The translations under genes were made by a program, and so were the position numbers. The notes beneath the pieces are model-generated. The model did not search any database, was not told where the DNA came from, and saw only the letters and a list, made by a program, of their open reading frames with translations. Shown here piece by piece: positions 10,974 through 30,697 of a DNA stretch of 32,000 nucleotides; position 1 is the stretch's first letter; every line of letters begins with the position of its first letter. The stretch comes from Coprobacillaceae bacterium (GTDB taxonomy: Bacteria; Bacillota_I; Bacilli_A; Erysipelotrichales; Coprobacillaceae), in contig OY776328.1 of NCBI GenBank assembly GCA_963675515.1, positions 300,001 through 332,000 of the forward strand, written 5' to 3'.

Positions 10974-11486
10974 ATGAGAAGAATATTATTTTCGTTTTTG
11001 GGAGCAATAATTTTTTTAACCGGCTGTCAGTCTGACGAATTGTCTGATAACACGGTTAAAAATGGAATAGAATATCAAGTGAATGACAATATCTCTTTCT
11101 ATTATCCCGACACGTTTGAATTGAGCGGAGTCACAGGTGAAGAGGTTTCTTTTGCAAAAGATGATCAACAGATGTATTACCGGTCAATCGCGGATGATTC
11201 ACAAAATCAACTGGATGACCTGGATGAGCTTTATATCGGAACCCTTGAACAAAACGGAGCTGAAATAATCGATGTTTCAAAGCCGATAATCGCCAGTGGC
11301 CTTGACTGTTATTACATTACCGGAATCTACAGCGATGTCGCAATCCGTTTTAGCGAACTGGTCTATTTCACTTCATCGATGACCTATGTCTATGGCTATC
11401 GGGCTGCAAGCGATACATACAATGACAACAGTGATATTGTCCGGACATATTTGGAAACAATAGTAATTGATACAGGAGAAAAGTAA
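10974..11486 (+). CDS. hypothetical lipoprotein
   Basis: The signal peptide carries a lipobox, MRRILFSFLGAIIFLTGC. AGGAGG lies upstream. I recognise no other family. Confidence 0.6.
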   Translation: MRRILFSFLGAIIFLTGCQSDELSDNTVKNGIEYQVNDNISFYYPDTFELSGVTGEEVSFAKDDQQMYYRSIADDSQNQLDDLDELYIGTLEQNGAEIIDVSKPIIASGLDCYYITGIYSDVAIRFSELVYFTSSMTYVYGYRAASDTYNDNSDIVRTYLETIVIDTGEK

Positions 11487-14085: not shown

Positions 14086-14679
14086 ATGAACTACTCGCTC
14101 GAAGAACTTTTATACTTGGCTAACCAGGGGTGTCCCTATGCATTTGATGCGTTCCATAAGGAAGTCCTGAAATTGGTTGATAATATGTATCGCTACGAGG
14201 CGATCAAGAGCAATATTTTCAAAAGTAAAAATTACAATGATTCAATCAATGTCGATATCAATGCGATTATCAAAGCGGCATACGGTTACCGCGATGATCG
14301 CAACTGCAGATTGAAGACATTTCTTTCGCGAGTTATTTCAAATAAAATAAAAACCTCTTTCCAGAAGGACATTAAAGAGAAAAAGGGCATGAGCAAGTAC
14401 GACTATGCCGAGTTGGAACAGTTCGTTCATCAGGCGGTTTTGTGCGCGCCCCAGAAAATATATGAGCCGGATTTCTATGTTGAGGTGACCAGTCAGATCA
14501 AGGATGCTTTGATTTTTGCCAAAGAAAACTGCTCAAAAACAGAAAACAGGATCCTGAGCCAAAAAGTTTATGGCTACAACATAGCGGAAATCGCCCAAGA
14601 CCTGAACAAACCGGCAAAGGCGGTTTACAACGGGGTTGACCGGATAAAGCAAAAAATGAAGCTTTTTAAAAAAGTTTGA
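14086..14679 (+). CDS. divergent sigma-70 family factor, SigH-like by position and pattern
   Basis: The C-terminal region-4 HTH is (YGYNIAEIAQDLNKPAKAVYNGVDRIKQKMK). The region-2/3-like stretch is (YRDDRNCRLKTFLSRVISNKIKTSFQKDIKEKK). It occupies the sigH slot between rlmB and rpmG-secE-nusG. GAGGAA lies 5 nt before the ATG. Confidence 0.55.
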   Translation: MNYSLEELLYLANQGCPYAFDAFHKEVLKLVDNMYRYEAIKSNIFKSKNYNDSINVDINAIIKAAYGYRDDRNCRLKTFLSRVISNKIKTSFQKDIKEKKGMSKYDYAELEQFVHQAVLCAPQKIYEPDFYVEVTSQIKDALIFAKENCSKTENRILSQKVYGYNIAEIAQDLNKPAKAVYNGVDRIKQKMKLFKKV

Positions 14680-14729
14680 CGGACAGCTGTTTTTATGATA
14701 ACCTTATCTAAGTTAGAAAGAGTGATAAA

Positions 14730-14879
14730 ATGAAAGAAAAAGTTATTTTGGTATGCAGCGAATGCCTTTCCCGCAACTATTCCATAACTAAAAACAAGAG
14801 AGTAAATGTCGAAAGACTTGAACTCCGCAAATATTGTAAAAAATGCGGGAAACATACGATTCACCGCGAAACCAAATAG
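14730..14879 (+). CDS. rpmG: 50S ribosomal protein L33 (49 aa, below the ORF-track cutoff)
   Basis: My translation is [49 protein letters not shown], with CxxC...CxxC zinc-ribbon cysteines. It lies immediately upstream of secE. Confidence 0.85.
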
Positions 14880-14888
14880 GAGAGAACT

Positions 14889-15077
14889 ATGAAAATTCGT
14901 GAATGGTTTAAGATCAAGGAAATCAGGACGCAAATCAAGAAAATTCATTGGTTGGAAAAAGACAAATTAGTCAAGAATTCAGGAATCGTAATCGGGTTTA
15001 CTTTTTTGATGGGGTTATTTTTCTACGCCAGTGATGGGATAATTGTGATAATTTTTAAAATGTTGGGGTTAAATTAA
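14889..15077 (+). CDS. secE: preprotein translocase subunit SecE
   Basis: It is 62 aa with a single C-terminal TM (GIVIGFTFLMGLFFYASDGIIVIIF), and has an EVRxE-like (EIRTQIKKIHW) N-terminus. It sits between rpmG and nusG. Confidence 0.8.
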   Translation: MKIREWFKIKEIRTQIKKIHWLEKDKLVKNSGIVIGFTFLMGLFFYASDGIIVIIFKMLGLN

Positions 15078-15894: not shown

Positions 15895-15919
15895 TGTGTT
15901 TGAACTTTGGAGGTTTATT

Positions 15920-17326
15920 ATGTATAAATTAAAACATATCAAAGAATCAGTTATCACAAATATCAAAGAGCGCAAGGCGATGTTCATTCCGGCAGTTGCT
16001 GTTGCTTCCTTTGCTTTAGTGGGTTATGCGGCGGTTGACCGTGAAGCTCCGGTAATCGATTCCAACAATATTGAATTAGTTTACGGCCAAGAATTTTCGA
16101 CAAATTTAGTTGAAGTAAGTGACAATCATGATACCCGATCTGAATTGGATATCGTAGCCGATACAAGCTCATTAAATATTAATCAATTAGGTGAATACAC
16201 AATCAGGGTAACTGCAACAGACCAGTTTCAAAATGCGGTTACTAAGAATGTCCTCGTAAATGTAGTGGACAAAGAGGCTCCGCAATTACAAATCGTTGGC
16301 AGCCAAGTAGGTTATATGATCGAGGTCCCTGTAAAAGGATCGACAAATATTGCCGATTACATCAAAGCGACGGATGATGTCGATGGTGATGTCACTCCGT
16401 TCATTGAACAGTCGGCCCAATTGAGTACCAATGCATTAGGACTGCAGACAATAACCGTTCAAGTGGAAGACAGTTCAGGAAACCTTACTGACGAGACATT
16501 CTACTTCAATGTAATGGACACGGAAGCTCCTGAAGCTACTCTTTCAAATGGCGAGTCAATCACCTTGAATTATGGCGAAGACTTTGATCTGAAAAATTAT
16601 CTGACATTCAAAGATAATTTTGATGAAGATGTCGAAGTGACTGTTGAGGGAAGTGTCGATACCAAAAACGAAAATGATGTGCAGGAAATTACCGCAACAG
16701 CCATCGATTCTTCAGGCAATCAGACTGTCAATACCCTGACTTTCTCTGTCAAGGATACATCCGCACCGGAAATCAAATTGACAAAATCAAGTATCGATTT
16801 AGTCACTGGTGCAAGCATCAATACCAAGTCATATTTGGCGAGCGCAATTGACAACAAGGATGGGGATCTTACTTCAAAAGTTGAGATCTCAAGCATCGAC
16901 ACAAGCAGCGCTGGAACAAAAACCGTAACTTACACGGTGACCGACAGCGAAGGCAACAAGGCGCAAGCCACCTTGAAAGTCAATGTTTCTTCAATGGGAA
17001 GCAAGATTCTTTCGGTTGCCGCGACCAAACTGGGAGTTCCTTATGTATGGGGGGCGACCGGACCAAATTCATTTGACTGTTCGGGATTCACCCAGTGGGT
17101 ATATAACCAAGTGGGAATTTCGATTCCAAGAACGTCCTCATCCCAGATGGCAGCAGGAACAAAGGTATCAGTTTCTCAGGCCCGTCCAGGTGACTTGTTA
17201 TGGCGTGATGGCCATATTGCCATCTTTGTTGGAGGAGACACTTATATCCACGCACCGCATACCGGAGACGTTGTCCGTTATGCTACCGGAATAAGCTCTT
17301 TCACATACGCAATTCGTTTTTACTAA
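15920..17326 (+). CDS. membrane-anchored cell-wall hydrolase: four Ig-like (DUF5011-type) modules plus a C-terminal NlpC/P60 endopeptidase domain
   Basis: The N-terminal TM is (FIPAVAVASFALVGYAAV). Four modules of about 80 aa each begin D-x-E/S-A-P (DREAP, DKEAP, DTEAP, DTSAP). The C-terminus is GVPYVWGATGPNSFDCSGFTQWVY...GHIAIFVGGDTYIHAP (Cys/His catalytic pair). The start at ATG 15920 follows GGAGG. Confidence 0.8.
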   Translation: MYKLKHIKESVITNIKERKAMFIPAVAVASFALVGYAAVDREAPVIDSNNIELVYGQEFSTNLVEVSDNHDTRSELDIVADTSSLNINQLGEYTIRVTATDQFQNAVTKNVLVNVVDKEAPQLQIVGSQVGYMIEVPVKGSTNIADYIKATDDVDGDVTPFIEQSAQLSTNALGLQTITVQVEDSSGNLTDETFYFNVMDTEAPEATLSNGESITLNYGEDFDLKNYLTFKDNFDEDVEVTVEGSVDTKNENDVQEITATAIDSSGNQTVNTLTFSVKDTSAPEIKLTKSSIDLVTGASINTKSYLASAIDNKDGDLTSKVEISSIDTSSAGTKTVTYTVTDSEGNKAQATLKVNVSSMGSKILSVAATKLGVPYVWGATGPNSFDCSGFTQWVYNQVGISIPRTSSSQMAAGTKVSVSQARPGDLLWRDGHIAIFVGGDTYIHAPHTGDVVRYATGISSFTYAIRFY

Positions 17327-17330
17327 ACTA

Positions 17331-17357
17331 AAAGAGATTTGATATCTCTTTTTTTTA
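17331..17357 (+). terminator. rho-independent terminator
   Basis: AAAGAGAT (17331-17338) pairs with ATCTCTTT (17344-17351), followed by a T-run to 17357. Confidence 0.7.
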
Positions 17358-17369
17358 CGGAGGGAAAGA

Positions 17370-18164
17370 ATGGGTCAGAAGTATTTTTTCTTTGATATTG
17401 ACGGAACGCTGGTTGATTTCAATGCCGGCATCGACAAAATCACACCAACTACCATCGAGGCGCTTAATGAATTGAAAAGCCGCAACCATCAGTTGCTCGT
17501 CGCAACAGGCCGCAGCATCTGCTTCATCCCCGATTTTGTCAAGGATTATGATTTCAATGGTTTTGTCACGTGCAACGGGGCCTATGTCGAATTGCATGGC
17601 AAATCATTGTACAAGGCAGTAATCGCCCAGGAAGCGATAAAAGAGGTTATCGATTTTTGCGACAACACCTTAAGCAATTACTATTTCGAGTCGAGGGATT
17701 CGATATACATCAGGGATTCCGGTGACCCGATGCATCAAAAGTTCATTGAGGAATGGTCTATGGATGCGAACATTTGTGTCGACAGTTTTGATTATGGACA
17801 GATTGAAACGTATATCGGCATGCTGGTGTGCCGCACTCCAGAAATACTCGAGCAGGCAAAACAAAGCCTGGCTTGCCATTTCGATGTCCAGCCCCATGTC
17901 CATGGGTGTTCTTGCGATTTGACTTTGAAAGGGGAATCTAAAGGCAAAGGGATTGAGATGCTCTGTGCCCACCTGAACGTGGATATAACCAACACGGTTG
18001 CCTTTGGCGATGCTCACAATGACTATGAGATGATTTCCAGTGTCGGATTGGGAATTGTAATGGGCAATGGAGTCAGCGCGCTTAAAAAGATCGGAGACTA
18101 TACAACTCTTTCGGTGAGTGATGAAGGTATTTTTCACGCATTAAGGGATCATAAATTTATCTAA
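17370..18164 (+). CDS. HAD-IIB (Cof-type) phosphatase, second paralogue
   Basis: YFFFDIDGTLV (DxD), ATGR, and FGDAHNDYEM are present. GGAGGG lies upstream. Confidence 0.75.
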   Translation: MGQKYFFFDIDGTLVDFNAGIDKITPTTIEALNELKSRNHQLLVATGRSICFIPDFVKDYDFNGFVTCNGAYVELHGKSLYKAVIAQEAIKEVIDFCDNTLSNYYFESRDSIYIRDSGDPMHQKFIEEWSMDANICVDSFDYGQIETYIGMLVCRTPEILEQAKQSLACHFDVQPHVHGCSCDLTLKGESKGKGIEMLCAHLNVDITNTVAFGDAHNDYEMISSVGLGIVMGNGVSALKKIGDYTTLSVSDEGIFHALRDHKFI

Positions 18165-18220
18165 CTCTTGAATATTTCGATTAATGTGATAATATGTTTC
18201 TAAGAGATATTTGCGAGAAT

Positions 18221-18253
18221 AAAGCCGCATTGTTCTTAGTCGGCGGCTTTTTG
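18221..18253 (+). terminator. terminator-like hairpin (first of two in tandem)
   Basis: AAAGCCGC (18221-18228) pairs with GCGGCTTT (18243-18250), followed by TTT. The loop is rather long. Confidence 0.5.
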
Positions 18254-18257
18254 AAAA

Positions 18258-18293
18258 GACCATGAAATTGCAGTTTGCAATTGGTCTTTTTTT
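18258..18293 (+). terminator. rho-independent terminator (second in tandem)
   Basis: GACC-[ATGA bulge]-AATTGCA (18258-18272) pairs with TGCAATT-GGTC (18276-18286), followed by T7 (18287-18293). Confidence 0.6.
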
Positions 18294-18439
18294 GTTTAAA
18301 TCCAAGTGCGCTTTTTCTTGTGAAGGAGGCGGAATATGATTGAAGAAAACTTGGAAAAACACCGCAAGTAAGGCAGTTACTTGTATTTTTTGTTGGGATT
18401 TTCGCTAATCTGAAAGTTATCATTTTGGGGATTTCGCAA

Positions 18440-18453
18440 TGAAAACGTTAACA
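18440..18453 (+). promoter_or_regulatory. catabolite-responsive element (cre, CcpA operator) candidate upstream of adhE
   Basis: TGAAAACGTTAACA fits every specified position of TGWNANCGNTNWCA. With the flanking A it also fits WTGNAANCGNWNNCW. Confidence 0.5.
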
Positions 18454-18486
18454 TTGAAACTTTGTGAAATTTTTTCCGAATAATGC

Positions 18487-18515
18487 TTGTAATCAAAAGG
18501 TTAACCATGTATACT
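18487..18515 (+). promoter_or_regulatory. sigma-A-type promoter of adhE
   Basis: TTGTAA (18487-18492), 17 nt, TATACT (18510-18515), about 48 nt upstream of the adhE ATG. Confidence 0.5.
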
Positions 18516-18562
18516 AGCGTTGTAAATTAAATATTTCACAAATAAATTGGAGGAAACAATTA

Positions 18563-21226
18563 ATGGCAGAAAAGAAAGTTGCTAAAAACGAAGTTGAAGC
18601 GACGCCAGTAGCTCCTACTGAAGCTGAAACTGACGCGCATATCGATGGTCTTGTAACTAAGGCATTACAAGCATTGAAAGAATTTGAATCATTTACTCAA
18701 GAACAAGTTGACCACATCGTGGCTAAATGCTCTGTTGCTGGGTTGGATGCTCATGGTATCTTGGCTGAAGCTGCAGTAAAAGAAACCGGTCGTGGTGTTT
18801 TTGAAGATAAAGCAGTTAAAAACTTGTTCGCTTGCGAATATGTTACATCTAACTTGCGTCATACAAAAACTGTAGGTATCATTTCTGAAGATCCAATCAC
18901 TGGAATCACTGAAATTGCTGAACCAGTTGGTGTTGTATGTGGTATCGTACCAACTACAAACCCTACTTCTACAACAATCTTCAAATGCTTGATCGCATTA
19001 AAGACAAGAAACCCAATCATCTTCTCTTTCCACCCTTCAGCCCATGAATGTTCTAAACAAGCTGCAATCGTGATCAGAGATGCGGCAATCGCTGCAGGTG
19101 CTCCTGAAAACTGTATCCAATGGTTGGAAATCAAATCAATGTATGCAACTGGGGCAATCATGAACCACCCAGGGATCGCAACTATCCTGGCAACTGGTGG
19201 TAACGCGATGGTTAAAGCCGCTTACTCATGTGGGAAACCTGCATTGGGTGTTGGGGCCGGTAACGTTCCTGCTTATGTTGAAAAAACTGCTATTATCAAA
19301 CGCGCTGCAAACGATATCTTCTTATCAAAAGCATTTGATAACGGGATGATCTGTGCTTCTGAACAAGCTGCAATCGTAGACCAAGAAATCTATGATGAAT
19401 TCAAAGCTGAAATCGGAAGATACCCAGTTCACTTCGCTAACGCAAAAGAAAAGAAATTATTGGAAAAATTCATGTTCGGTGTTGAGAGTGGTGCTCAAAA
19501 CGTTGATGCTGCCAAATTGAATGCCGCTGTTGTTGGTAAGCCTGCTGCTTGGATCGCTGAACAAGCTGGATTCACTGTTCCTGCTGAAACTCAAGTTATC
19601 GTTGCTGAATGTAACGAAGTTGGTCCTAACGAACCATTGACTCGTGAAAAATTATCTCCAGTATTGGCTATGTTGAAATCTGCTTCAACTGAAGAAGGTA
19701 TCGAATTGGCTGGTCAAATGGTTGAATTCAACGGTTTGGGTCACTCGGCTGCAATCCACACAGAAGATCACGATATCACTGTAAGATTCGGTAAAAGATG
19801 TAAAGCTATCCGTATTATTGAAAATGCTCCTTCTACGTTCGGTGGAATCGGTTCAGTTTATAATGCCTTCATCCCATCATTGACTTTAGGATGTGGTTCT
19901 TATGGACACAACTCAGTTTCTAACAACGTAAGTGCGGTAAACTTACTCAATATTAAAAGAATCGGGAGACGTAACAATAATATGCAATGGGTTAAACTTC
20001 CACCAAAAATTTATTTCGAAAGAAACTCTATCCAATATCTAAAAGACATGAAAGATATGGAAAAATGTATGATCGTAACTGACAAAGCTATGTACAACTT
20101 AGGTTACGTACAAAAAATCGAAGACGTTATCCGTCGTCGTAACAACAAAGTAGACATCGAATTATTCTTCGAAGTTGAACCGGATCCATCTTTGGAAACA
20201 GTATACAAAGGTGTTGAGACCATGAGAAACTTCGCTCCTGATTGCATTATCGCATTAGGTGGTGGTTCTTCAATGGATGCTGCTAAAATCATGTGGTTAT
20301 TATACGAAAACCCAACTGTGGTATTCGATGACCTGAAACAAAAATTCATGGATATCCGTAAACGTGCATTCAAATTCCCTGAATTAGGTAAAAAAGCGAA
20401 AATGATCTGTATCCCAACAACTTCAGGTACAGGTTCAGAAGTGACTCCTTTCGCGGTAATCACTGACAAAGCTGAAAACAAAAAATACCCATTGGCTGAC
20501 TACGCGTTGACTCCAACAGTAGCTATCGTTGACCCTGAGTTCGTTGCGACTTTACCAAAAGCAGTAGCTGCCGACACTGGTATCGACGTATTGACACATG
20601 CGGTTGAAGCATACGTTTCAATCCTGGCATCAGATTTCACTGATGGATGGGCTAAACAATCAATCAAAATGATCTTCGATTACTTGGAAGAATCAGTAAA
20701 CCAAGCAACTCCAATTTCTCGTGAAAAAATGCATAATGCTGCGACTATCGCTGGTATGGCATTCGCTAATGCTTTCTTAGGTGTCAACCACTCATTGGCT
20801 CATAAAATTGGTGGGGAATTCCACGTACCTCACGGTCGTACAAACGGTATCTTGTTGCCACACGTAATCCGTTACAACGGTACCATCCCTACTAAATTAA
20901 ACATCTGGCCAAAAATCGAAAACTATAAAGCTGATGTTAAATACATGGAATTGGCTCAATTGATCGGTCTGAATCCAAAAACTCCTGCTGAAGGTGTTGC
21001 AATGTTCGCTGACGCATGTGAAGAATTATGTGCAAAAGTCGGATTGGCTTGCAACTTCGAATCTCAAGGAATCTCTAAAGAAGCTTGGACAGAAGCTAAA
21101 CACCGTATCGCGATGAACGCATACGAAGATCAATGTACACCTTGTAACCCAAGAATGCCTTTGATCAATGACATGGAAAACATGTTGGAATCTGTTTACA
21201 GCTACAAAAGCAAATTTTTTAAATAA
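18563..21226 (+). CDS. adhE: bifunctional acetaldehyde-CoA dehydrogenase / iron-dependent alcohol dehydrogenase
   Basis: It is 887 aa. The N-terminal ALDH domain contains (IVPTTNPTST, catalytic MICASEQ). The C-terminal Fe-ADH domain contains (GGGSSMDAAK, HAVEAY, NHSLAHKIGG..H). The SD is GGAGG. Confidence 0.92.
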   Translation: MAEKKVAKNEVEATPVAPTEAETDAHIDGLVTKALQALKEFESFTQEQVDHIVAKCSVAGLDAHGILAEAAVKETGRGVFEDKAVKNLFACEYVTSNLRHTKTVGIISEDPITGITEIAEPVGVVCGIVPTTNPTSTTIFKCLIALKTRNPIIFSFHPSAHECSKQAAIVIRDAAIAAGAPENCIQWLEIKSMYATGAIMNHPGIATILATGGNAMVKAAYSCGKPALGVGAGNVPAYVEKTAIIKRAANDIFLSKAFDNGMICASEQAAIVDQEIYDEFKAEIGRYPVHFANAKEKKLLEKFMFGVESGAQNVDAAKLNAAVVGKPAAWIAEQAGFTVPAETQVIVAECNEVGPNEPLTREKLSPVLAMLKSASTEEGIELAGQMVEFNGLGHSAAIHTEDHDITVRFGKRCKAIRIIENAPSTFGGIGSVYNAFIPSLTLGCGSYGHNSVSNNVSAVNLLNIKRIGRRNNNMQWVKLPPKIYFERNSIQYLKDMKDMEKCMIVTDKAMYNLGYVQKIEDVIRRRNNKVDIELFFEVEPDPSLETVYKGVETMRNFAPDCIIALGGGSSMDAAKIMWLLYENPTVVFDDLKQKFMDIRKRAFKFPELGKKAKMICIPTTSGTGSEVTPFAVITDKAENKKYPLADYALTPTVAIVDPEFVATLPKAVAADTGIDVLTHAVEAYVSILASDFTDGWAKQSIKMIFDYLEESVNQATPISREKMHNAATIAGMAFANAFLGVNHSLAHKIGGEFHVPHGRTNGILLPHVIRYNGTIPTKLNIWPKIENYKADVKYMELAQLIGLNPKTPAEGVAMFADACEELCAKVGLACNFESQGISKEAWTEAKHRIAMNAYEDQCTPCNPRMPLINDMENMLESVYSYKSKFFK

Positions 21227-21235
21227 TAACGACTG

Positions 21236-21260
21236 ACCCGGGATATTCTCGGGTTTTTTA
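21236..21260 (+). terminator. rho-independent terminator
   Basis: ACCCGGG (21236-21242) pairs with CTCGGGT (21248-21254, one G-U pair), followed by T6. Confidence 0.7.
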
Positions 21261-21436
21261 ATGCAGTTTTTCATGTTATAGTTTAAACAGGAGATTGATC
21301 TTGGAATGTGGGAAAATCCCACGGGATTGTCAAAAATATCGGGAAATGTTCCATCATGACAGTTTGCCATAATTCAGTCATATTTTACCTATATCATATG
21401 ATTGAAAATAAGATAAGCGAATTTGTGGAGGTATCT

Positions 21437-22483
21437 ATGAAAATTGTAATAAAGATGTTGGTTGACCTGACGATGATGGTCATGTTTCTGTTTTTGATGT
21501 TCGGGTACGAACTCTCTCCTTTGTACCATGAGGTTTTGGGGATAGGTATTGGAGTTGTTTTCCTGATCCATGTTTTGTTGAACCTGAAAGCTACAAAGGG
21601 GATATTGGGGTCGCTGGTTGCCGGAAGGCTCAAAGGTACGACAAAGGCCAATGCCATATTGGATGTCGTGCTTTTGGTCATGATGCCCCTGGACATCATC
21701 AGCGGCCTGCTGGATTCCAAGTTCATAATATACAGTCCTTATAATTCCCTTATCTCAACGGCTCATCACGCCTTTTCTTGGGTTGTCTTGGCAATCATTG
21801 CGGGGCACCTCTATCTCCACCGGAATTACTTGAAGGCTGCCATAAAATCAAAATTCCTGCGTGGCAGACAGTCAAAAGGCAACGCGTTGGCATTGATGGG
21901 ACTTGTTGCGATAGTCGGCGGAGTGCTGTTCAATTCATTCATGCTAGTGTTGAACATCAATGATGGTTCGCTCGATTCGACAGTCAGCAGTAATGATGAC
22001 GATGATGACGATTCAAGCGGAACAGCCCAGGACAATGGGGGCGCCAGCACAGTGACGCTCGATAATTATCTTTCATCATTGCGCTGTGATGGCTGTGGCC
22101 GTCACTGCTCGCTGGCATCGCCTCAGTGTGGCATTGGCGAAGACCAGGCGGATCAGGCTACCCTTGAGTATGAGAGTCTCTATGGCCAAAGCGAAAGCGA
22201 TACAACCGACGAATCGCAGTCAACAACTGATGACTCAACATCGGGATCCAGCGAAAGCGATCAGCCGGCAACTGACGGAGGCGTAACCGACACTGCAATG
22301 ACCCTTAATGAATATCTTAAAGGTTTCAACTGCGATGGCTGCGGTCGTCGCTGTTCACTGGCCAATCCCAAATGTGGCATTGGGGAAAACCAGGCGGATC
22401 AGGCAACCTTGGATTATGAGAGCCTTTATGGACAAGAGGACTCAGGCAATACGAGTCTTGTGGCTGCAACATTCTCCAACTGA
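21437..22483 (+). CDS. five-TM His-rich membrane protein (DUF4405-like, putative cytochrome-b-like) fused to acidic linkers and two tandem Cx2Cx3Cx6C modules
   Basis: GGAGG (21426-21430) precedes ATG 21437. There are five hydrophobic segments, with His in or at the edge of TM segments (LYHEV, FLIHVL, STAHHAF, AGHLYLH). The C-terminal half holds two 45-aa repeats, each with CDGCGR(H/R)CSLxxPxCGIG. The family assignment is from memory of DUF4405 features and was not searched. Confidence 0.6.
   Translation: MKIVIKMLVDLTMMVMFLFLMFGYELSPLYHEVLGIGIGVVFLIHVLLNLKATKGILGSLVAGRLKGTTKANAILDVVLLVMMPLDIISGLLDSKFIIYSPYNSLISTAHHAFSWVVLAIIAGHLYLHRNYLKAAIKSKFLRGRQSKGNALALMGLVAIVGGVLFNSFMLVLNINDGSLDSTVSSNDDDDDDSSGTAQDNGGASTVTLDNYLSSLRCDGCGRHCSLASPQCGIGEDQADQATLEYESLYGQSESDTTDESQSTTDDSTSGSSESDQPATDGGVTDTAMTLNEYLKGFNCDGCGRRCSLANPKCGIGENQADQATLDYESLYGQEDSGNTSLVAATFSN
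22055..22189 (+). repeat. intragenic repeat copy 1 (Cys4 module)
   Basis: TLDNYLSSLRCDGCGRHCSLASPQCGIGEDQADQATLEYESLYGQ. By hand alignment to copy 2, 100 of 135 nt and 34 of 45 aa are identical. Confidence 0.85.
22301..22435 (+). repeat. intragenic repeat copy 2 (Cys4 module)
   Basis: TLNEYLKGFNCDGCGRRCSLANPKCGIGENQADQATLDYESLYGQ. It lies 246 nt (82 codons) downstream of copy 1. Confidence 0.85.
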
Positions 22484-22536
22484 TAATTATTCACAAATTG
22501 TCATCTCAAAAATGTTATAATGAAATCAACCTAAGA

Positions 22537-22569
22537 CTTTAAGTAAGTTTTAGGTTTTAATGTTAATAA
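22537..22569 (+). promoter_or_regulatory. 20-bp direct-repeat box plus extended -10 upstream of the response-regulator gene
   Basis: CTTTAAGTAAGTTTTAGGTT (22537-22556), 4 nt, TGtTAATAA (22561-22569). It is the twin of the element at 24517-24549. Confidence 0.4.
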
Positions 22570-22586
22570 TTAATTGGGGTGATAAT

Positions 22587-23264
22587 ATGAGGATTTTATT
22601 GGCTGAAGATGAACGCGATATCGCAAACGTGTTGCAGGTGGTATTGAAACGTAATAACTATGAGGTTGATTGGGTAAGCAATGGAGTTGATTTTGTGGAC
22701 TATATCGACACCGGAAATTATGATCTGGCTGTTTTGGATATAATGATGCCAAAGATGGACGGAATAAGCGCTTTGAAGATCATCAGGGAAAAGGGATTTG
22801 AAATTCCGGTCATCTTGCTGACTGCAAAAAGCGAGGTCGATGACAAGGTTAATGGGCTTGATTCAGGCAGCGACGATTATCTTACCAAGCCATTCGCAAC
22901 CAAAGAGCTGCTGGCCAGGATCAGGATGCTTCTGCGAAGGAATAAAACGACAGTCGACAATGAGCTTACCTATGGAAATATAGTCCTGTCACGGGTAACT
23001 TATTTGCTTAAGGGTCCAAAGCGGGAGTTCAAGCTGGCATCCAAAGAGTTCCAATTGCTCGAATTGCTGCTCCAGCAACCTGGAGCGGTCATTTCCACAG
23101 AAATGTTCATGGACAAGGTATGGGGATACCAGAGCGAAAGTGAAATCAATGTGGTCTGGACGCATATCTCGTACATCCGGAAGAAATTGAGGGAAATCGG
23201 ATCGAATGTGGTAATAAAGGCGTCACGGGGTGCGGGTTATTTTCTGGAGGTAAGCGATGATTAA
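22587..23264 (+). CDS. OmpR/PhoB-family response regulator
   Basis: MRILLAEDERDIANVL, the acceptor region LAVLDIMMPKMDG, LLTAK, and a C-terminal winged helix (...VWTHISYIRKKL...SRGAGYFLE) are present. The start at ATG 22587 follows GGGGTGA. Confidence 0.85.
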   Translation: MRILLAEDERDIANVLQVVLKRNNYEVDWVSNGVDFVDYIDTGNYDLAVLDIMMPKMDGISALKIIREKGFEIPVILLTAKSEVDDKVNGLDSGSDDYLTKPFATKELLARIRMLLRRNKTTVDNELTYGNIVLSRVTYLLKGPKREFKLASKEFQLLELLLQQPGAVISTEMFMDKVWGYQSESEINVVWTHISYIRKKLREIGSNVVIKASRGAGYFLEVSDD

Positions 23265-24489
23265 AAGACTGCAGCGCCGATTCATCCTTATTGCCTTGAT
23301 ATCGGTGTCGGTCGTCTTCGTCGTCATAATGGGCACTTTGCTTATAAGCGATTACGTGAACATTGTCGAAAAGGCAGACAATTCGATAGACCTTATTTAT
23401 TCGGCGGGCGACATGCTAAAAGCCGACCTGTCAGACCGGACGACAATAAAGAAGCCGCCTACTGACGATTTGGATGGCAGCTATGATTTCAGGGGACCTG
23501 AGGGGATTTTTTCTTCCCGATTCTTCATCGTTACCCTTAACGATGGGGTCGTCAGTGATGTCAATGTCGACAATATCTCGGCTATAGACCAGGCGAGTGC
23601 AAGTGCAATGGCGTTGGAAGTGATTGACAATGACAGCGGCGTCTATGACAATTATCGGTATAAGGTATTTGATGATGGGTCGAGTCTGACGGTCGTCTTC
23701 ATCGATACCTTTATGGAAATGCAGTCTTTCTATGACTTTCTGACCAATACCGCCATAATGGGTGGCTTTGGACTTGGGATGTTCATCATAATCGCGTGGT
23801 TCCTGTCAAAGATGGCAATAAGACCTTTGGTGGAATCGATCGAAAAGCAAAAGCAGTTCATCACCAATGCTTCCCACGAACTGAAGACACCATTGACTGT
23901 TATTTCCGCCAACAATGAAATGATCGAGCTCGATTATGGAGAGAACAACTGGTCGCAAGGCATCGAGAGGCAGGTTGCCAAGATGAACAAGCTTACGAAT
24001 TCGCTGGTGACCCTGGCCCGGCTCGACGAACAGAATTATCATGTCGAACTCAAAGATGTCTCCTTGAACGAACTTGTCCGGGAAGTTGCGGAGGATTATC
24101 GCGATCTGGCCTTGGTTGAAAATAAGACTTTTGAATGCGAGCTGGATCCGGTAGTGCTAAAGGGAAATGGCGAACTGCTATCCCAGCTTGTCTCCATATT
24201 GCTTGACAATGCGCTGAAGTACTCAAACGGCAATGGTTGGATCAGGATCCGCCTTTCAGGGGGCAAGCGGAGACGTCTTATCGTTGAAAACAGCGTGGCT
24301 GAAATCACTTCAGGAAATCATGACGAAGTGTTCGAACGATTCACCCGGCTGGAACAGTCACGCAACTCAAGTCTTGGTGGATATGGAGTCGGGCTGGCCA
24401 TTGCCAAGTCAATTGTGAACAGGCATCATGGCAAAATCAGGGCATACAGCAATGACAGCAACACTTTCACCATCATGGTTGAATTCTGA
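23257..24489 (+). CDS. sensor histidine kinase (two TM, extracytoplasmic loop of about 140 aa, HisKA + HATPase_c)
   Basis: The H-box is NASHELKTPL, the N-box LLDNALKYS, and the G-box GGYGVGLAIAKSIV. Its start overlaps the end of the regulator gene by 8 nt (23257-23264, ATGATTAA). Confidence 0.85.
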   Translation: MIKRLQRRFILIALISVSVVFVVIMGTLLISDYVNIVEKADNSIDLIYSAGDMLKADLSDRTTIKKPPTDDLDGSYDFRGPEGIFSSRFFIVTLNDGVVSDVNVDNISAIDQASASAMALEVIDNDSGVYDNYRYKVFDDGSSLTVVFIDTFMEMQSFYDFLTNTAIMGGFGLGMFIIIAWFLSKMAIRPLVESIEKQKQFITNASHELKTPLTVISANNEMIELDYGENNWSQGIERQVAKMNKLTNSLVTLARLDEQNYHVELKDVSLNELVREVAEDYRDLALVENKTFECELDPVVLKGNGELLSQLVSILLDNALKYSNGNGWIRIRLSGGKRRRLIVENSVAEITSGNHDEVFERFTRLEQSRNSSLGGYGVGLAIAKSIVNRHHGKIRAYSNDSNTFTIMVEF

Positions 24490-24490
24490 T

Positions 24491-24514
24491 AACGGCTTTT
24501 GCCGTTTTTTTTAA
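24491..24514 (+). terminator. rho-independent terminator
   Basis: AACGGC (24491-24496) pairs with GCCGTT (24501-24506), followed by T8. Confidence 0.75.
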
Positions 24515-24516
24515 TC

Positions 24517-24549
24517 CTTAAAGTACGTTTAAAGTTGTATTGGTAAATT
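24517..24549 (+). promoter_or_regulatory. 20-bp direct-repeat box plus extended -10 upstream of the VTC-domain gene
   Basis: CTTAAAGTACGTTTAAAGTT (24517-24536), 4 nt, TGgTAAATT (24541-24549). 16 of 20 box positions match the element at 22537-22556. Confidence 0.4.
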
Positions 24550-24571
24550 GATATTGTAAGGAGTGTAAAAA

Positions 24572-25318
24572 ATGGCAAATGACAAATTTGAACGTCTGGA
24601 ATTCAAATATCTGATTACCAGATCCCAACAAAAAAGACTTTTTGATAAATTCCCGGAATCTGTTAAAATGGATGCCTACGGCCACACCGAGATTTACAAT
24701 CTATATTTTGACACCGATGATTTCCGACTGATCCGCAGTTCAATCGAGAAACCGGTCTACAAGGAAAAATTGCGAGTGCGATCATATGGCCGGGCAAACA
24801 TGAAAGAACCGGTTTATATCGAACTTAAGAAGAAGTACAAAGGCATCGTTTACAAGCGGAGGATAGAAGAAGCCCAAGATGAGGCGCTGACTGCCTTGAT
24901 AACCAAAAACATCGACTGTGACAATCAGATAGGACGGGAGATCGACTATTTCACCAAATATTACCAGACATTGCGTCCGCGGATGTTTATCGGTTATACA
25001 AGGGATGCCTATTGCGACCAAAAAAATCCGGAATTGCGGATCACCTTTGACTCCGATATTAAATATCGCCTCGACAATCTGACCCTGGATTGCAAAAATG
25101 AGGGTGATCAACTGATTGATGGAGATCATGTCCTGATGGAAATCAAAATAATGGGGGCGTTTCCTTTGTGGCTTTCAGTTGCCCTGTCCCAGTTGGCGAT
25201 CACCAAGTCAAGTTTTTCCAAATATGGCAATGCCTACAAGTCGTGTCTGGCAACCGGACGCATCAACATTAAGATAAATAATAACTATGGAAAACAAGGA
25301 GTAATGACTTATGCTTGA
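24572..25318 (+). CDS. VTC-domain protein (CYTH-like triphosphate-tunnel fold; annotated in databases as polyphosphate polymerase domain-containing)
   Basis: The N-terminus is FERLEFKYLI. Alternating charged strand motifs are present: KLRVRSY, YIELKKKY, VYKRRIE, LRITFDSD and VLMEIKI. The SD is AAGGAG. Confidence 0.7.
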   Translation: MANDKFERLEFKYLITRSQQKRLFDKFPESVKMDAYGHTEIYNLYFDTDDFRLIRSSIEKPVYKEKLRVRSYGRANMKEPVYIELKKKYKGIVYKRRIEEAQDEALTALITKNIDCDNQIGREIDYFTKYYQTLRPRMFIGYTRDAYCDQKNPELRITFDSDIKYRLDNLTLDCKNEGDQLIDGDHVLMEIKIMGAFPLWLSVALSQLAITKSSFSKYGNAYKSCLATGRINIKINNNYGKQGVMTYA

Positions 25319-26003
25319 TTCAATAATCGAACAGCTGACATCGACAACGACATCACAGATCACATTGTCATCTTTTCTAAGCTGCATGGTGGCGGCCATG
25401 ATCATCGGGCTTGTGATAGCCAAAATTTACGAATATAAGAACAACTATAACAAGGGATTTGTGATCACCCTGGCAATGCTTCCGTCAATTGTGACATTGG
25501 TCATAATGATGGTCAACGGCAATATCGGTACGGGGGTGGCTGTCGCCGGGGCGTTTTCCCTGGTAAGATTCCGCTCCCAGCCTGGAAGTGCCCGGGAAAT
25601 TAATGCGATATTTTTCACAATGGCCACCGGACTTGCGACCGGTATGGGGTATCTTCTCATAGCGGTGCTCTTTACTGCTGTCATGGCTATCTTCAATATG
25701 GTGCTGGTCAGCAGTTCATTCGGTGAAGCCGGTGAAAATATCACCAAAAAGGAAATCCGGATCACGATCCCTGAAGACCTGGACTATGAAAATGTGTTCA
25801 ACGACCTGTTTGAAGAGGCGACAAGAAATTACCGGCTGGTCGAAGTCAAGACAACGAATATGGGCAGCCTGTTCAAGTTGCGATACGAGGTGGAGTTCAA
25901 AGCCGGAGCAAACGAAAAGGATTTTATCGACAGCCTTCGTTGCCGAAACGGTAATCTGGAAATATCAAGCTCCTATTCACGCTCGGCAATCACAGAATTA
26001 TAA
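25311..26003 (+). CDS. DUF4956-type membrane protein with a C-terminal soluble alpha/beta domain
   Basis: It has four to five TM segments including GVAVAGAFSLVRFRSQPGSAREI and FFTMATGLATGMGY, and a soluble tail of about 80 aa. There is an 8-nt overlap with the VTC gene (translational coupling). The family call is from memory. Confidence 0.6.
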   Translation: MLDSIIEQLTSTTTSQITLSSFLSCMVAAMIIGLVIAKIYEYKNNYNKGFVITLAMLPSIVTLVIMMVNGNIGTGVAVAGAFSLVRFRSQPGSAREINAIFFTMATGLATGMGYLLIAVLFTAVMAIFNMVLVSSSFGEAGENITKKEIRITIPEDLDYENVFNDLFEEATRNYRLVEVKTTNMGSLFKLRYEVEFKAGANEKDFIDSLRCRNGNLEISSSYSRSAITEL

Positions 26004-26004
26004 T

Positions 26005-26026
26005 ACGGCGTTATGCCGTTTTTTTG
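26005..26026 (+). terminator. rho-independent terminator
   Basis: ACGGC (26005-26009) pairs with GCCGT (26015-26019), followed by T7. Confidence 0.7.
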
Positions 26027-26106
26027 ATTCTGTTTTTTAACAAGATGCTTCATTTTTAACTGAGAATATGGTTTAATTAAACTAGGTGAAGTTGAGGTGG
26101 ACTGGT

Positions 26107-26895
26107 ATGAATGTTCTGGTAGCTTGCTCAAATCCGGTCAGGATCAAAGATGAATATTTTCTTGGTAGCTTGGGAAAGATGTTGGAAGGTGAAATAATCA
26201 TAAGCGCCTATCTTTCAAGTGAAGATGCCAAGGCTAAAGCAGACGAATTGAATCATTATTTCGAAATTGATGCCCCCAATATATTTGATATCAGCGGCGG
26301 CGATCTTGCCAATGGGGTATTGCCATATCTGGATTTTCAGATTATCGCCAATTCAGCTTCCGTTTTTCATGGCTACAGTGATTTGACTACGGTGATCAAC
26401 GCGATCTATTCCCAGACAAATAAGCGGTCCTGGTATTACCAGGTGAGGTTTTCTGGCTATTACCCCGAGATACTGGAGCGGGTAATGGACAATACCGGGA
26501 GCCTGGATGTCGAATTTGTCCAAGGCCGTGAAATGGATGGAATTGCAATCGGAGGGAATATCCGTTGTTTTTTGAAACTGGCAGGAACCAGATATTTGCC
26601 AAATTTTACAGGTCATATTCTCTTTTTGGAAGCCTACAGCACCGAAAAATATCAGCTTATGACGATGATCAGCCAACTTGAACAGATGGGCGCCTTTGAA
26701 CGGATCGCCGGCCTGGTTTTAGGGACGTTCACCAGGATCGAACAAGTCGAGGGTTATGGATGGCTGGTCGGAGAATTCAAGAAGCATTGCGACAAGCCGA
26801 TTGCGATTACCAGGGATTTTGGGCACCATCAGTCTTCAAAGGGATTCCTGGTTGGCGGGCATTATAAATTTGATAGGAATTCATTTCGGGATTGA
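26107..26895 (+). CDS. LD-carboxypeptidase (peptidase S66, LdcA/MccF-like)
   Basis: The Ser-Glu-His triad context is FHGYSDLTTV, ILFLEAY and DFGHH. The start at ATG 26107 follows GAGGTGG. At 262 aa it is somewhat short for the family. Confidence 0.7.
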   Translation: MNVLVACSNPVRIKDEYFLGSLGKMLEGEIIISAYLSSEDAKAKADELNHYFEIDAPNIFDISGGDLANGVLPYLDFQIIANSASVFHGYSDLTTVINAIYSQTNKRSWYYQVRFSGYYPEILERVMDNTGSLDVEFVQGREMDGIAIGGNIRCFLKLAGTRYLPNFTGHILFLEAYSTEKYQLMTMISQLEQMGAFERIAGLVLGTFTRIEQVEGYGWLVGEFKKHCDKPIAITRDFGHHQSSKGFLVGGHYKFDRNSFRD

Positions 26896-26971
26896 TATCT
26901 TCTATTGATGTTGCAGGTGATTATCGCGGGCCGCTATGGCCAAAATAATTTCCAATAAGGTCAATATCTTC

Positions 26972-28684
<1,713 letters not shown>

Positions 28685-28707
28685 AATTTCATATTCAAAT
28701 TCATAAA

Positions 28708-28737
28708 AGTATGGAATATCTTTGCCATACTTTTTTT
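28708..28737 (+). terminator. rho-independent terminator
   Basis: AGTATGG (28708-28714) pairs with CCATACT (28725-28731), followed by T7. Confidence 0.7.
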
Positions 28738-28781
28738 AAATTGATATTTATGTTAAAATGGAAAAGATAGAGGTGAGTGGA

Positions 28782-29261
28782 ATGTACCGGATTGGACAAT
28801 CGATTGATATCCACCAATTGGTGCCCGGACGCGACCTTATACTGGGCGGTGTCCGAATTGAAAATGACCTGGGACTATTAGGCCACAGCGATGCCGATGT
28901 GCTTTTGCATGCCATAATCGAAAGTGTCATCGGAGCCCTGGGGCTGGGTGATATCGGCAAGCACTTCAGTGACCGTGACCCCCAATACAAAGGGATTTCT
29001 TCACTGGTCCTGTTGGAACATTGTTACAGGCTGATGGATGAAAATGGCTACCAGATAAGCAATCTTGACAGCATCATCATCATTGAAAGGCCCAAAATGG
29101 CACCACACATCGATCAAATGCGTGAAAATGTCGCAAAACACTTGCACTGTGACCTGAATGCGGTGAACATCAAAGCCACTCGTGGTGAGAAAATGGGATT
29201 CGTAGGTCATGGCGAAGGGGCGGTTGCCCAAGCTGTGGTTTTGTTAAAGAGGAAGGATTAG
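28782..29261 (+). CDS. ispF: 2-C-methyl-D-erythritol 2,4-cyclodiphosphate synthase
   Basis: [23 protein letters not shown] and GDIGKHF are present. The start at ATG 28782 follows GAGGTGA. Confidence 0.85.
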
Positions 29262-29263
29262 AA

Positions 29264-30697
29264 ATGGAAAGAGTCAGAGTAAGATATGCCCCAAGCCCAA
29301 CGGGACATTTACATATTGGAGGTGCGCGTACCGCACTGTTTAACTATTTGTTCGCAAAACATCATGGCGGAGACTTCATTTTCCGTCTCGAGGACACCGA
29401 TGTGGCGAGAAACATCGAAGGTGGCGAAGCCAGCCAGTTGAAAAACCTGGAGTGGCTGGGTATTGTTCCTGACGAATCGCCTTTCAAACCGGTGGAAAAA
29501 TATGCACCTTATCGCCAGATGGAAAGATTGGATATCTACAAGGAATTCATCGATTTCCTGCTGGAAAAAGGATATGCCTACAAGTGTTTTTGCACCCCTG
29601 AGGAACTTGAAGAAGAACATGAACGTCAAGTTGCCAGCGGGATTGCGCCGATGTATAACCGCAAGTGCGCTAATTTGACACCCGAACAGGTCAAGGCAAA
29701 TGAAGATGCAGGCATGCCGTATACGGTAAGGGTCAAGGTTCCGGAAAACAAAGTTTACGAGTTTGAGGACATGATCCGCTCCAAGGTAAGCTTCGAATCA
29801 AAAGATATCGGTGACTGGGTGATCCAAAAAGCCAATGGAATCCCAACCTATAACTTTGCGGTAGTGGTCGACGACCATACCATGGAAATTTCTCACGTAT
29901 TCAGAGGTGAAGAACATCTTTCGAACACACCTAAGCAAATAATGATTTTTGAAATGCTCGGATGGGAAGCGCCGAAATATGGACATATGACGCTGATTGT
30001 CAATGAGAACCGAAAGAAATTGTCAAAACGTGACGAAACGATCATGCAGTTCGTTTCCCAATACAGGGAAGAGGGTTATCTTCCTGATGCCATGTTCAAC
30101 TTCATGGCACTTTTGGGATGGTCGCCAGAAGGTGAGCAGGAAATCTTCACAAAAGAAGAGCTGATCGCTGCCTTTGATGAAAAACGACTTTCAAAATCAC
30201 CATCGATGTTCGACAAGGAAAAATTGATCTGGGTCAACAACCGCTATATCAAGGAAAGAAGTCTTGAAGATGTTGTCGCTTTATGTCAGCCGTTCCTGCA
30301 AGAGGCATATGACCTTTCAGGTAAAACACAAGAATGGATTGAGATGCTTGTAAGTGTCTACCATGACCAGCTTTCATATGGCAAGGAAATTGTGAACTTG
30401 ACTTCACTGTTCTTCAAAGATGACTTGCAATTGGATCCTGAAGCTCAAGAATTCATGCAAGACGAGTCGATTCCCAACACTTTGGCGGTATTCGCAAAAC
30501 AGATTGAAGCAATTGAAGATTTCACTCGTGACAATATTCAGGCTGCAATCAAGGCGACACAAAAAGAAGCCAAGGTTAAAGGCAAGATGCTTTTCATGCC
30601 ACTTAGAATCGCGACAACTGGAATTATGCACGGTCCGGATCTGGCCAGCTCCATTGCTTTGATTGGCAAAGAAAAGGTATTGGACCGTTTGAAATAA
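29264..30697 (+). CDS. gltX: glutamate--tRNA ligase
   Basis: [20 protein letters not shown] (HIGH) and KLSKR are present. It begins 2 nt after ispF. Confidence 0.9.

Follow-up and report, generated by a model that had tools for sequence, protein, structure and literature searches.

A predicted CiaR-type operator connects a two-component system with a VTC-domain protein and a DUF4956 membrane protein in a conserved four-gene module

To our knowledge, the synthesis of polyphosphate in bacteria is credited to PPK1 and PPK2, and the VTC polymerase is regarded as a eukaryotic invention. A review from 2023 maps VTC across eukaryotes only (PMC10657179). Thousands of Firmicute genomes encode a Vtc4-like tunnel protein that is locked to a membrane protein of the DUF4956 family. 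Here we analyse such a pair in a Coprobacillaceae bacterium (assembly GCA_963675515.1, contig OY776328.1, positions 300,001 to 332,000 of the forward strand; this whole stretch of 32,000 nucleotides is called the window, and coordinates count from its first letter). The pair follows the genes for a response regulator and a sensor histidine kinase, and it may represent a bacterial form of the VTC polymerase that has other partners and is placed under a CiaR-like regulator.

Among described enzymes, yeast Vtc4 is homologous to the VTC protein of the window and the aligned tunnel residues are kept; in both systems a soluble catalytic domain is accompanied by a small multi-pass membrane protein. 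The bacterial module differs from the yeast VTC complex in possessing neither an SPX domain nor a fused DUF202 domain, in having DUF4956 as partner and in retaining a glutamate, E10. The CYTH-type hydrolases (C. thermocellum TTM, E. coli YgiF and AtTTM3) belong to the same beta-tunnel superfamily and have the first-strand x-E-x-K pattern in common with the window protein, but they carry a patch of four glutamates, whereas the latter is basic at two or more of these positions and matches the VTC model far better than the CYTH model. The same VTC and DUF4956 pair has been noted alongside extracytoplasmic or surface functions: accessory genes in the order cotH, polyphosphate polymerase (VTC), DUF4956 and DUF4832 adjoin Gram-positive pel operons (10.1101/768473), and in NELoc-2 of C. 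perfringens VTC/'tubulin-like' pairs occur with CotH (PMC2879425). In contrast to these gene sets, the locus described here has no CotH, DUF4832 or pel genes, and the pair is instead accompanied by a two-component system with a CiaR box and, usually, by a Cthe_2159 lipoprotein. The regulatory side of the module resembles CiaRH of Streptococcus and BAS0540/0541 of B. anthracis. The operator of CiaR has been defined experimentally in streptococci, with the consensus NTTAAG-N5-TTTAAG located 10 nt upstream of the -10 element (PMC3091779), a repeat that the CiaR homologue BAS0540 binds as well, among other places upstream of its own gene (PMC4938410). Common to these systems and the present one are the repeat, its distance of about 10 nt to the -10 element, a box at the regulator's own operon, a kinase with two transmembrane (TM) segments around an extracytoplasmic domain and, in related genomes, boxed protease and peptidoglycan-hydrolase genes; in contrast, identity between the regulator and CiaR is only 38%, and VTC–DUF4956 is unmentioned as a target in the cited CiaR papers. 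An earlier, preliminary description of this DNA, made from its letters, had held that VTC plus DUF4956 lacks an experimentally defined function; likewise, we found no functional study of the module, only incidental mentions including transcriptome tables, in a literature whose subscription journals were mostly beyond reach, so that the absence is unproven.

The regulator, the kinase, the VTC protein and the DUF4956 protein form a four-gene module that is conserved across Clostridia and Erysipelotrichia and is frequent among gut Firmicutes. The neighbourhood survey comprised 80 VTC loci of other species, chiefly from Lachnospiraceae, Oscillospiraceae and Ruminococcaceae, whose VTC proteins are 44–52% identical to that of the window; 47 of them had enough flanking sequence. 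In 74 of the 80 loci the gene right after VTC is that for DUF4956. A related regulator–kinase pair adjoins VTC in 30 of the 47 well-flanked loci (divergently in 16, upstream on the same strand in 10 and downstream in 4), and clustering of neighbouring open reading frames (ORFs) revealed the gene for a Cthe_2159 beta-helix lipoprotein (about 600 aa, 3e-94) next to VTC in 39 of the 47. The minimal, four-gene version without Cthe_2159 is found in the lineage of the window and in Acetoanaerobium noterae. The preliminary description had regarded five genes as one co-conserved block, counting in a membrane protein gene that precedes the regulator (gene 1 below); the survey upheld the association of VTC, DUF4956 and the two-component pair but returned a gene 1 homologue in none of the 80 loci, so that the unit comprises four genes instead. 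Two points had been missed, namely that the usual third operon gene, Cthe_2159, is absent here and that the promoter box is a CiaR-type repeat.

In the 130 nt upstream of the VTC gene, listed for all loci, a direct repeat together with a -10-like hexamer recurs. The strict form of the repeat, TTWARG-N5-TTWARG, is present exactly twice in the window, at 22538-22554 and 24518-24534, as compared with 0.08 occurrences expected; among the related loci it lies within 200 nt upstream of VTC in 24 of 77 and occurs 16 times elsewhere in 1.03 Mb. A weight matrix was built from 23 sites, none of them in the window or in its close relatives. This external matrix matches the window only twice, with 22.2 bits at 22538-22554 and 18.0 bits at 24518-24534. 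Over 1.07 Mb of loci it yields 80 matches, 65 of them within 250 bp upstream of VTC (51) or of the adjacent regulator gene (14) and 15 elsewhere, and an equivalent box precedes VTC in 34 of the 77 other loci. As the 23 training loci are circular as evidence, independent support comes from the regulator-upstream sites, the two sites of the window and 11 further VTC loci. The earlier claim that a shared promoter box links the two-component system to the VTC operon is borne out by footprinting in dozens of genomes.

Both sites of the window show, in silico, the arrangement of a CiaR promoter, that is, (N)TTAAG-N5-TTTAAG about 10 nt upstream of a -10 element; the distance between repeat and -10 is 9-10 nt (TAATAAT and TAAATT, respectively). 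The box at 22538-22554 is predicted to be an autoregulation site, and that at 24518-24534 an activation site that replaces the -35 element. It is very probable that the regulator–kinase pair controls its own operon and VTC–DUF4956. Activation rather than repression is what we infer, as is the nature of the signal considered below. Transcription of the regulator operon is predicted to start near 22576 on the basis of the box and -10 geometry, for which reason ATG 22587, not ATG 22560, is taken as the true start of the regulator; for VTC–DUF4956 the predicted transcription start is near 24556. There was no sign of the CiaR-dependent small RNAs that are typical of streptococci, the window holding no further boxes. 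Among the 15 matrix matches located elsewhere, several precede divergent Cthe_2159 genes, two PcsB-like M23 peptidase genes accompanied by an HlyD/ABC system, an ABC-2 transporter operon or a trypsin-like protease gene heading the VTC operon. The boxes in other genomes thereby appear to outline an envelope-oriented regulon. The present findings take operators of the CiaR type far outside the streptococci and bacilli and point to a conserved target of this class of regulators. High-scoring boxes elsewhere stand at 11287 (+) and 2831 (-) of locus L036, at 2591 (+) of L011 and, all on the minus strand, at 7903 of L039, 1538 of L062, 2046 of L066 and 6338 of L075.

Scans for ORFs and hairpins found the five plus-strand genes where the preliminary description had placed them, with an 8-nt overlap in the regulator/kinase and in the VTC/DUF4956 pair, as well as both outer terminators. 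The features of the block are as follows:
21235..21262 (hairpin 21235-21255), +: intrinsic terminator of adhE, upstream boundary of the block; 9-bp stem with 5 G-C pairs, then a T-run
21437..22483, +: gene 1, cytochrome-b-like protein with Cys4 modules (ORF)
22528..22556, +: weak A+T-rich hairpin separating gene 1 from the regulator gene; stem of 12 bp, of which only 3 are G-C pairs, poor T-run
22538..22554, +: CiaR-type direct repeat TTTAAG-TAAGT-TTTAGG upstream of the regulator gene; strict match, 22.2 bits
22564..22570, +: putative -10 element TAATAAT, 9-10 nt past the repeat; read from the sequence, spacing as in related loci
22587..23264, +: OmpR-family response regulator, 225 aa (Pfam)
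23257..24489, +: sensor histidine kinase, 410 aa (Pfam)
24491..24514 (hairpin 24491-24506), +: strong intrinsic terminator closing the regulator–kinase operon; 6-bp stem with 4 G-C pairs, T8
24518..24534, +: CiaR-type direct repeat TTAAAG-TACGT-TTAAAG upstream of VTC; strict match, 18.0 bits
24544..24549, +: putative -10 element TAAATT, 9 nt past the repeat; read from the sequence
24558-24563, +: ribosome-binding site AAGGAG of the VTC gene; read from the sequence
24572..25318, +: soluble VTC-domain (triphosphate tunnel) protein, 248 aa (Pfam)
25311..26003, +: DUF4956 membrane protein, 230 aa (Pfam)
26005..26026 (hairpin 26005-26019), +: intrinsic terminator closing the VTC–DUF4956 operon; 6-bp stem with 4 G-C pairs, T7

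The block is not a single operon but comprises three transcription units, since a strong terminator (24491-24506) and a weak hairpin (22528-22556) lie within it: gene 1, the regulator–kinase operon, and the VTC–DUF4956 operon, which begins right after the kinase terminator. The 5′ arm of the weak hairpin is an inverted third half-site (AACCTAAG) paired with the second half-site of the regulator box. This hairpin could act as a leaky terminator, as an extra regulator-binding element, or as both.

Pfam profile searches confirmed the Response_reg/Trans_reg_C, HisKA, VTC and DUF4956 assignments made earlier. The regulator combines a receiver with a winged helix (Response_reg 5.7e-32, Trans_reg_C 4e-22), and the adjoining gene encodes a kinase with HisKA and HATPase_c domains, in which two TM segments flank an extracytoplasmic domain of about 135 aa, as expected for an OmpR/HisKA two-component system. 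BLASTP gives 38% identity between the regulator and CiaR of S. pneumoniae (CIAR_STRR6, a reference checked by exact look-up), and 7 of 13 positions of the recognition helix match, by eye, the CiaR helix printed in PMC3091779. Since 38% is ordinary among paralogues of the OmpR family, we do not claim orthology to CiaR; what we propose is a CiaR-like mode of action. Regulator orthologues adjoining VTC in other genomes are 40-59% identical to that of the window, and the kinases next to VTC elsewhere give full-length tblastn matches at 29-39% identity. The sensor domain alone retrieves 22 VTC-adjacent kinases outside the close relatives (E < 1e-3), which argues that these kinases are one family rather than arbitrary neighbours.

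The VTC protein matches the Pfam VTC family (PF09359) with 129.7 bits (cut-off 23; 1.7e-37), its residues 8-224 covering positions 2-233 of the 235-position model; its CYTH match is weak (17.8 bits, 3.2e-3). At E ≤ 1e-5 it has more than 7,600 relatives, most of them annotated as 'polyphosphate polymerase domain-containing protein'. The 248 residues contain the VTC domain only, with no SPX and no DUF202 transmembrane domain. A search with the single sequence gave no match to Vtc4; a profile of 18 family members matches the catalytic domain of yeast Vtc4 (3g3q_A) with an E value of 2.4e-7 over profile positions 3-170. The invariant residues are R8, E10, K12, R68, R70, K86, K95, R97, Y142, R144, E190, K192, S216 and K217. 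In the alignment R8/K12 correspond to R196/K200 of Vtc4, R68/R70 to R264/R266, K86 to K281, K95/R97 to K294/R296 and Y142/R144 to Y359/R361, so that the aligned tunnel residues, those of the N-terminal two thirds, are kept. The Vtc4 residue numbers are those counted from the alignment, which we take to agree with Hothorn et al. 2009. The invariant E190-x-K192 and S216-K217 are plausible counterparts of E426 and K458 of Vtc4, in a C-terminal half that is unaligned. Hydrolytic tunnel enzymes have a four-glutamate acidic patch for a second metal; Vtc4p has, in place of this patch, basic residues by which the chain is guided as it grows, and its catalytic lysine is K458 (PMC4641920). The protein of the window has R-x-E-x-K on its first strand and E-x-K later, which places basic residues, R8 and K192, at two acidic-patch positions. 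From these features the protein would be nearer to the polymerase Vtc4 than to the hydrolytic tunnel enzymes. It is a candidate polyphosphate polymerase, and that it actually synthesizes polyphosphate seems to us evenly poised.

The membrane partner belongs to DUF4956 (PF16316; 59.2 bits, cut-off 30.6, 5.3e-16), a family of 5,498 clusters at 50% identity (E ≤ 1e-3). Its AlphaFold2 model (mean predicted local distance difference test score, pLDDT, 76.5) consists of five TM helices and a C-terminal beta-alpha-beta-beta-alpha-beta domain of ACT-like type. When the model was compared with the PDB by Foldseek, the C-terminal domain alone gave matches, which were weak and of the ACT/ferredoxin-like kind (E > 0.01). 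Invariant positions include glycine-rich helices, R86-F-R88-S at the predicted cytoplasmic end of a helix, and R210, R212, N213, G214 and N215 in the soluble domain. MgtC likewise combines TM helices with an ACT-like domain, a resemblance in general layout only. The translational coupling of the VTC and DUF4956 genes and their near-universal adjacency argue that the two proteins would form a complex.

We propose that the module encodes an envelope-signal-induced polyphosphate polymerase with a membrane partner, an explanation that is the best we can offer and to which we give about an even chance. The kinase would sense a signal, most likely related to the cell envelope, through its extracytoplasmic domain and then phosphorylate the regulator; the phosphorylated regulator would bind TTWARG-N5-TTWARG 9-10 nt upstream of the -10 element, acting like CiaR as an activator that replaces the -35 element, and would switch on its own operon and VTC–DUF4956. 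The soluble VTC protein, with a tunnel lined like that of yeast Vtc4, would dock on DUF4956 at the inner membrane face and there form polyphosphate from a nucleoside triphosphate; DUF4956 might pass the chain outward or, alternatively, anchor and control the enzyme. What the sequences show is the gene structure, the domain families, the co-conservation and the box with its geometry; synthesis or translocation of polyphosphate, put forward in the preliminary description, is inferred. As the operon of most genomes continues with the extracytoplasmic lipoprotein Cthe_2159, the product is suggested to act at or beyond the membrane. A channel role of DUF4956 is hypothetical, and translocation of polyphosphate by this protein seems doubtful, if conceivable. 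It is tentative, and in our opinion unlikely, that gut Firmicutes possess a third, PPK-independent route to polyphosphate, in which a CiaRH-like sensor would induce VTC and DUF4956, a two-gene counterpart of the eukaryotic VTC machine, to make the polymer at the membrane and deliver it to the surface, with Cthe_2159 handling it outside the cell in most lineages. With a regulator that is conserved, an operator whose sequence is defined, a likely third partner and a minimal version of four genes, the question of bacterial VTC becomes directly testable.

Several observations weigh against this explanation. We know of no biochemical evidence for any bacterial VTC-domain protein. No chain of Vtc4 was aligned by a profile of the C-terminal half of the VTC protein, and equivalents of E426 and K458 of Vtc4 could not be aligned by sequence. 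At the position of invariant E10, which is that of one of the acidic-patch glutamates of hydrolases, Vtc4 has a threonine. The identity of the regulator to CiaR is no higher than to other OmpR-family models and remains at the level of ordinary paralogues. For the TM part of DUF4956, Foldseek found no solved structural match in the PDB. A relationship of DUF4956 to Vtc1-type DUF202 channels was considered and rejected, the E value of 0.92 in a permissive Pfam search being at noise level, and the same holds for MgtC/YhiD (PF02308), with a Pfam E value of 0.32 and an hhalign probability of 0.3 against E. coli YhiD. The window has no gene for Cthe_2159, on which the idea of export rests. Finally, among the tunnel enzymes assayed in PMC4641920, Vtc4p alone made polyphosphate.

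Alternatively, the VTC protein may be a hydrolase (a tripolyphosphatase, polyphosphatase or NTPase), in which case the operon would serve, under stress, to use up or remodel phosphoanhydrides, with DUF4956 as a regulator or an anchor. Most characterised bacterial tunnel enzymes are hydrolytic, polymerisation being seen with Vtc4p only in the assays just cited, and both the weak CYTH match and E10, located where hydrolytic enzymes bind metal through a glutamate, agree with this reading. It has to contend with the bit scores (129.7 for VTC as compared with 17.8 for CYTH), with the basic nature of the residues equivalent to E2 and E171 of AtTTM3 (R8 and K192, as in Vtc4), and with the fact that R264, R266, K281, K294 and R296 of Vtc4 all have invariant counterparts. 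On balance we consider hydrolysis unlikely, though a serious contender.

Another view starts from the regulon rather than from the enzyme. The module might belong to a CiaRH-like envelope- or secretion-stress regulon in which VTC–DUF4956 is one membrane-associated effector and export of polyphosphate is not its purpose; such an effector might alter surface charge or cation binding, or modulate the balance of ATP and phosphate in the manner of MgtC. The TM-plus-ACT-like layout that DUF4956 has in common with MgtC agrees with this, as do the boxes found in related loci ahead of genes for PcsB-like M23 peptidases, for a trypsin-like protease and for transporters of the HlyD/ABC and ABC-2 types. 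In 4 of the 80 loci a gene for an HtrA-like protease stands beside the two-component genes, and htrA is part of the CiaR regulon (cited in PMC4938410); these neighbours and the boxed peptidoglycan-hydrolase genes fit a CiaRH-like role in envelope stress. This view overlaps with the envelope-signal-induced polymerase proposed above and does not exclude it, homology to MgtC is not significant, and the constant partner of the two-component system is VTC–DUF4956, not the proteases. As an alternative to the polymerase it appears improbable.

Gene 1 was found to be a lineage-specific neighbour outside the conserved module. Five TM helices are predicted for its product, and behind them come an acidic linker and two C-x2-C-x3-C-x6-C modules. 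Seven homologues were returned from 5.8 billion protein sequences, five from syntenic close relatives and two distant (P0126 and P0127). The invariant residues are H31, H45, H110, H124 and H128 together with the four cysteines of the C-x2-C-x3-C-x6-C motif. The pairs H31/H45 and H110/H124, each 14 residues apart, are situated on predicted helices 2 and 4, and a spacing of 14 residues is the classical haem-ligand spacing of di-haem cytochromes b. The best Pfam match, to Ni_hydr_CYTB, is below threshold (22.9 bits, cut-off 30.1; 8.3e-5). The preliminary description had called the protein DUF4405-like. This applies to the distant homologues P0127 (55.1 bits) and P0126 (30.1 bits), which pass the DUF4405 cut-off and bear the same C-terminal Cys4 module, but gene 1 itself has no Pfam DUF4405 match at E < 0.01. 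The AlphaFold2 model has an overall pLDDT of 54 (70-85 in the TM region, below 50 in the tail) and is usable for the membrane part only; its best fold matches in the PDB, cytochrome b561, STEAP4, Dcytb and FdnI, are not significant (all E ≥ 0.5). Taken together, gene 1 looks like a di-haem cytochrome-b-like protein of the DUF4405/Ni_hydr_CYTB clan. Its helical membrane bundle with two histidine pairs 14 residues apart is common to DUF4405, prokaryotic cytochrome b561 and ferric-reductase-type di-haem proteins, from which it is set apart by scores below the Pfam cut-offs, by non-significant fold matches and by Cys4 modules that fit no described family. According to the positive-inside rule, the acidic linker and the Cys4 modules are predicted to be extracellular.

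The position of gene 1 outside the module follows from its absence from the 80 other VTC loci, from the unrelated gene contexts of the two distant DUF4405-Cys4 relatives, and from the lack of a regulator box upstream of it, by the strict pattern as well as by the external matrix. It is accordingly very improbable that, as first supposed, all five genes are one signal-controlled system with gene 1 giving a redox or metal input to the kinase or to VTC: gene 1 adjoins the module in all five close relatives, only the weak hairpin, which could allow read-through, separates it from the regulator gene, and its di-haem histidine pattern with external Cys4 modules would suit a redox-active membrane protein, but adjacency within one syntenic lineage counts as a single observation, and nothing supports the proposed input, given the few homologues, their contexts and the missing box.

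The Cys4 module of gene 1 occupies residues 207-252 and 287-336 and follows the pattern Y-L-x4-C-x-G-C-x-R-x-C-S-L-x2-P-x-C-x2-G-x2-Q-A, for which neither Pfam nor NCBIfam has a matching family. Four of the close homologues have one copy; the window and locus L004 have two, at differing positions, and the module also terminates the distant DUF4405 proteins. It has the look of a small, hitherto undescribed extracytoplasmic domain, metal- or disulfide-binding, carried by a di-haem membrane protein. For the public gene 1 protein P0121 (391 aa) the start is GTG 21308. All homologues, in turn, start with MKIV, the counterpart of ATG 21437, ahead of which stands a GGAGG ribosome-binding site, and the deposited annotation is therefore probably 43 residues too long.

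The preliminary description had also presented the block as interrupting core metabolic genes. It was correct that mobile-element signatures are missing, none being apparent among the ORFs of 17000-30000, but an inserted or mobile island is ruled out by normal G+C content (0.41-0.49 in the block, a range similar to the 0.39-0.46 of the flanks) and by the synteny kept from adhE to pyrG. Relatives from Erysipelotrichaceae metagenome bins, with VTC proteins 71% and 59% identical, retain adhE, gene 1, the regulator, the kinase, VTC, DUF4956, the LD-carboxypeptidase gene and pyrG; as this order persists down to 59% VTC identity, the block is resident rather than a recent insertion. None of the five proteins reached the cut-off of an NCBIfam equivalog, a PADLOC scan for defence systems gave no meaningful match, and no Rfam family was found in the window. 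The LD-carboxypeptidase gene (26086-26895) directly follows the module, and the flanks encode repeat proteins with Bact_surface_Ig-like domains, at 15896-17326 in the window and at 14183-14998 in locus L001; judged from the Pfam annotation of the syntenic L001 counterpart, the window protein ends in an NlpC/P60 peptidase. With these Ig-like/NlpC-P60 proteins and the LD-carboxypeptidase on its two sides, the module resides in a chromosomal neighbourhood rich in cell-wall genes.

Two metagenomic ORFs (P0311 and P0371) join a partial VTC domain to a partial DUF4956 domain; both domains are truncated at the junction, and the ORFs are probably deletion or assembly artefacts rather than natural fusions. 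A search of a plasmid collection gave only four matches, all unannotated. Locus L091 lies on a 98-kb plasmid of Enterococcus faecalis (LR962858.1, record positions 55388-56062), on which a VTC–DUF4956 pair is followed by a regulator–kinase pair; the regulator is 34% identical to that of the window and the kinase matches in its core only. Plasmids can therefore carry variants of the module, in this instance within a genetically tractable host.

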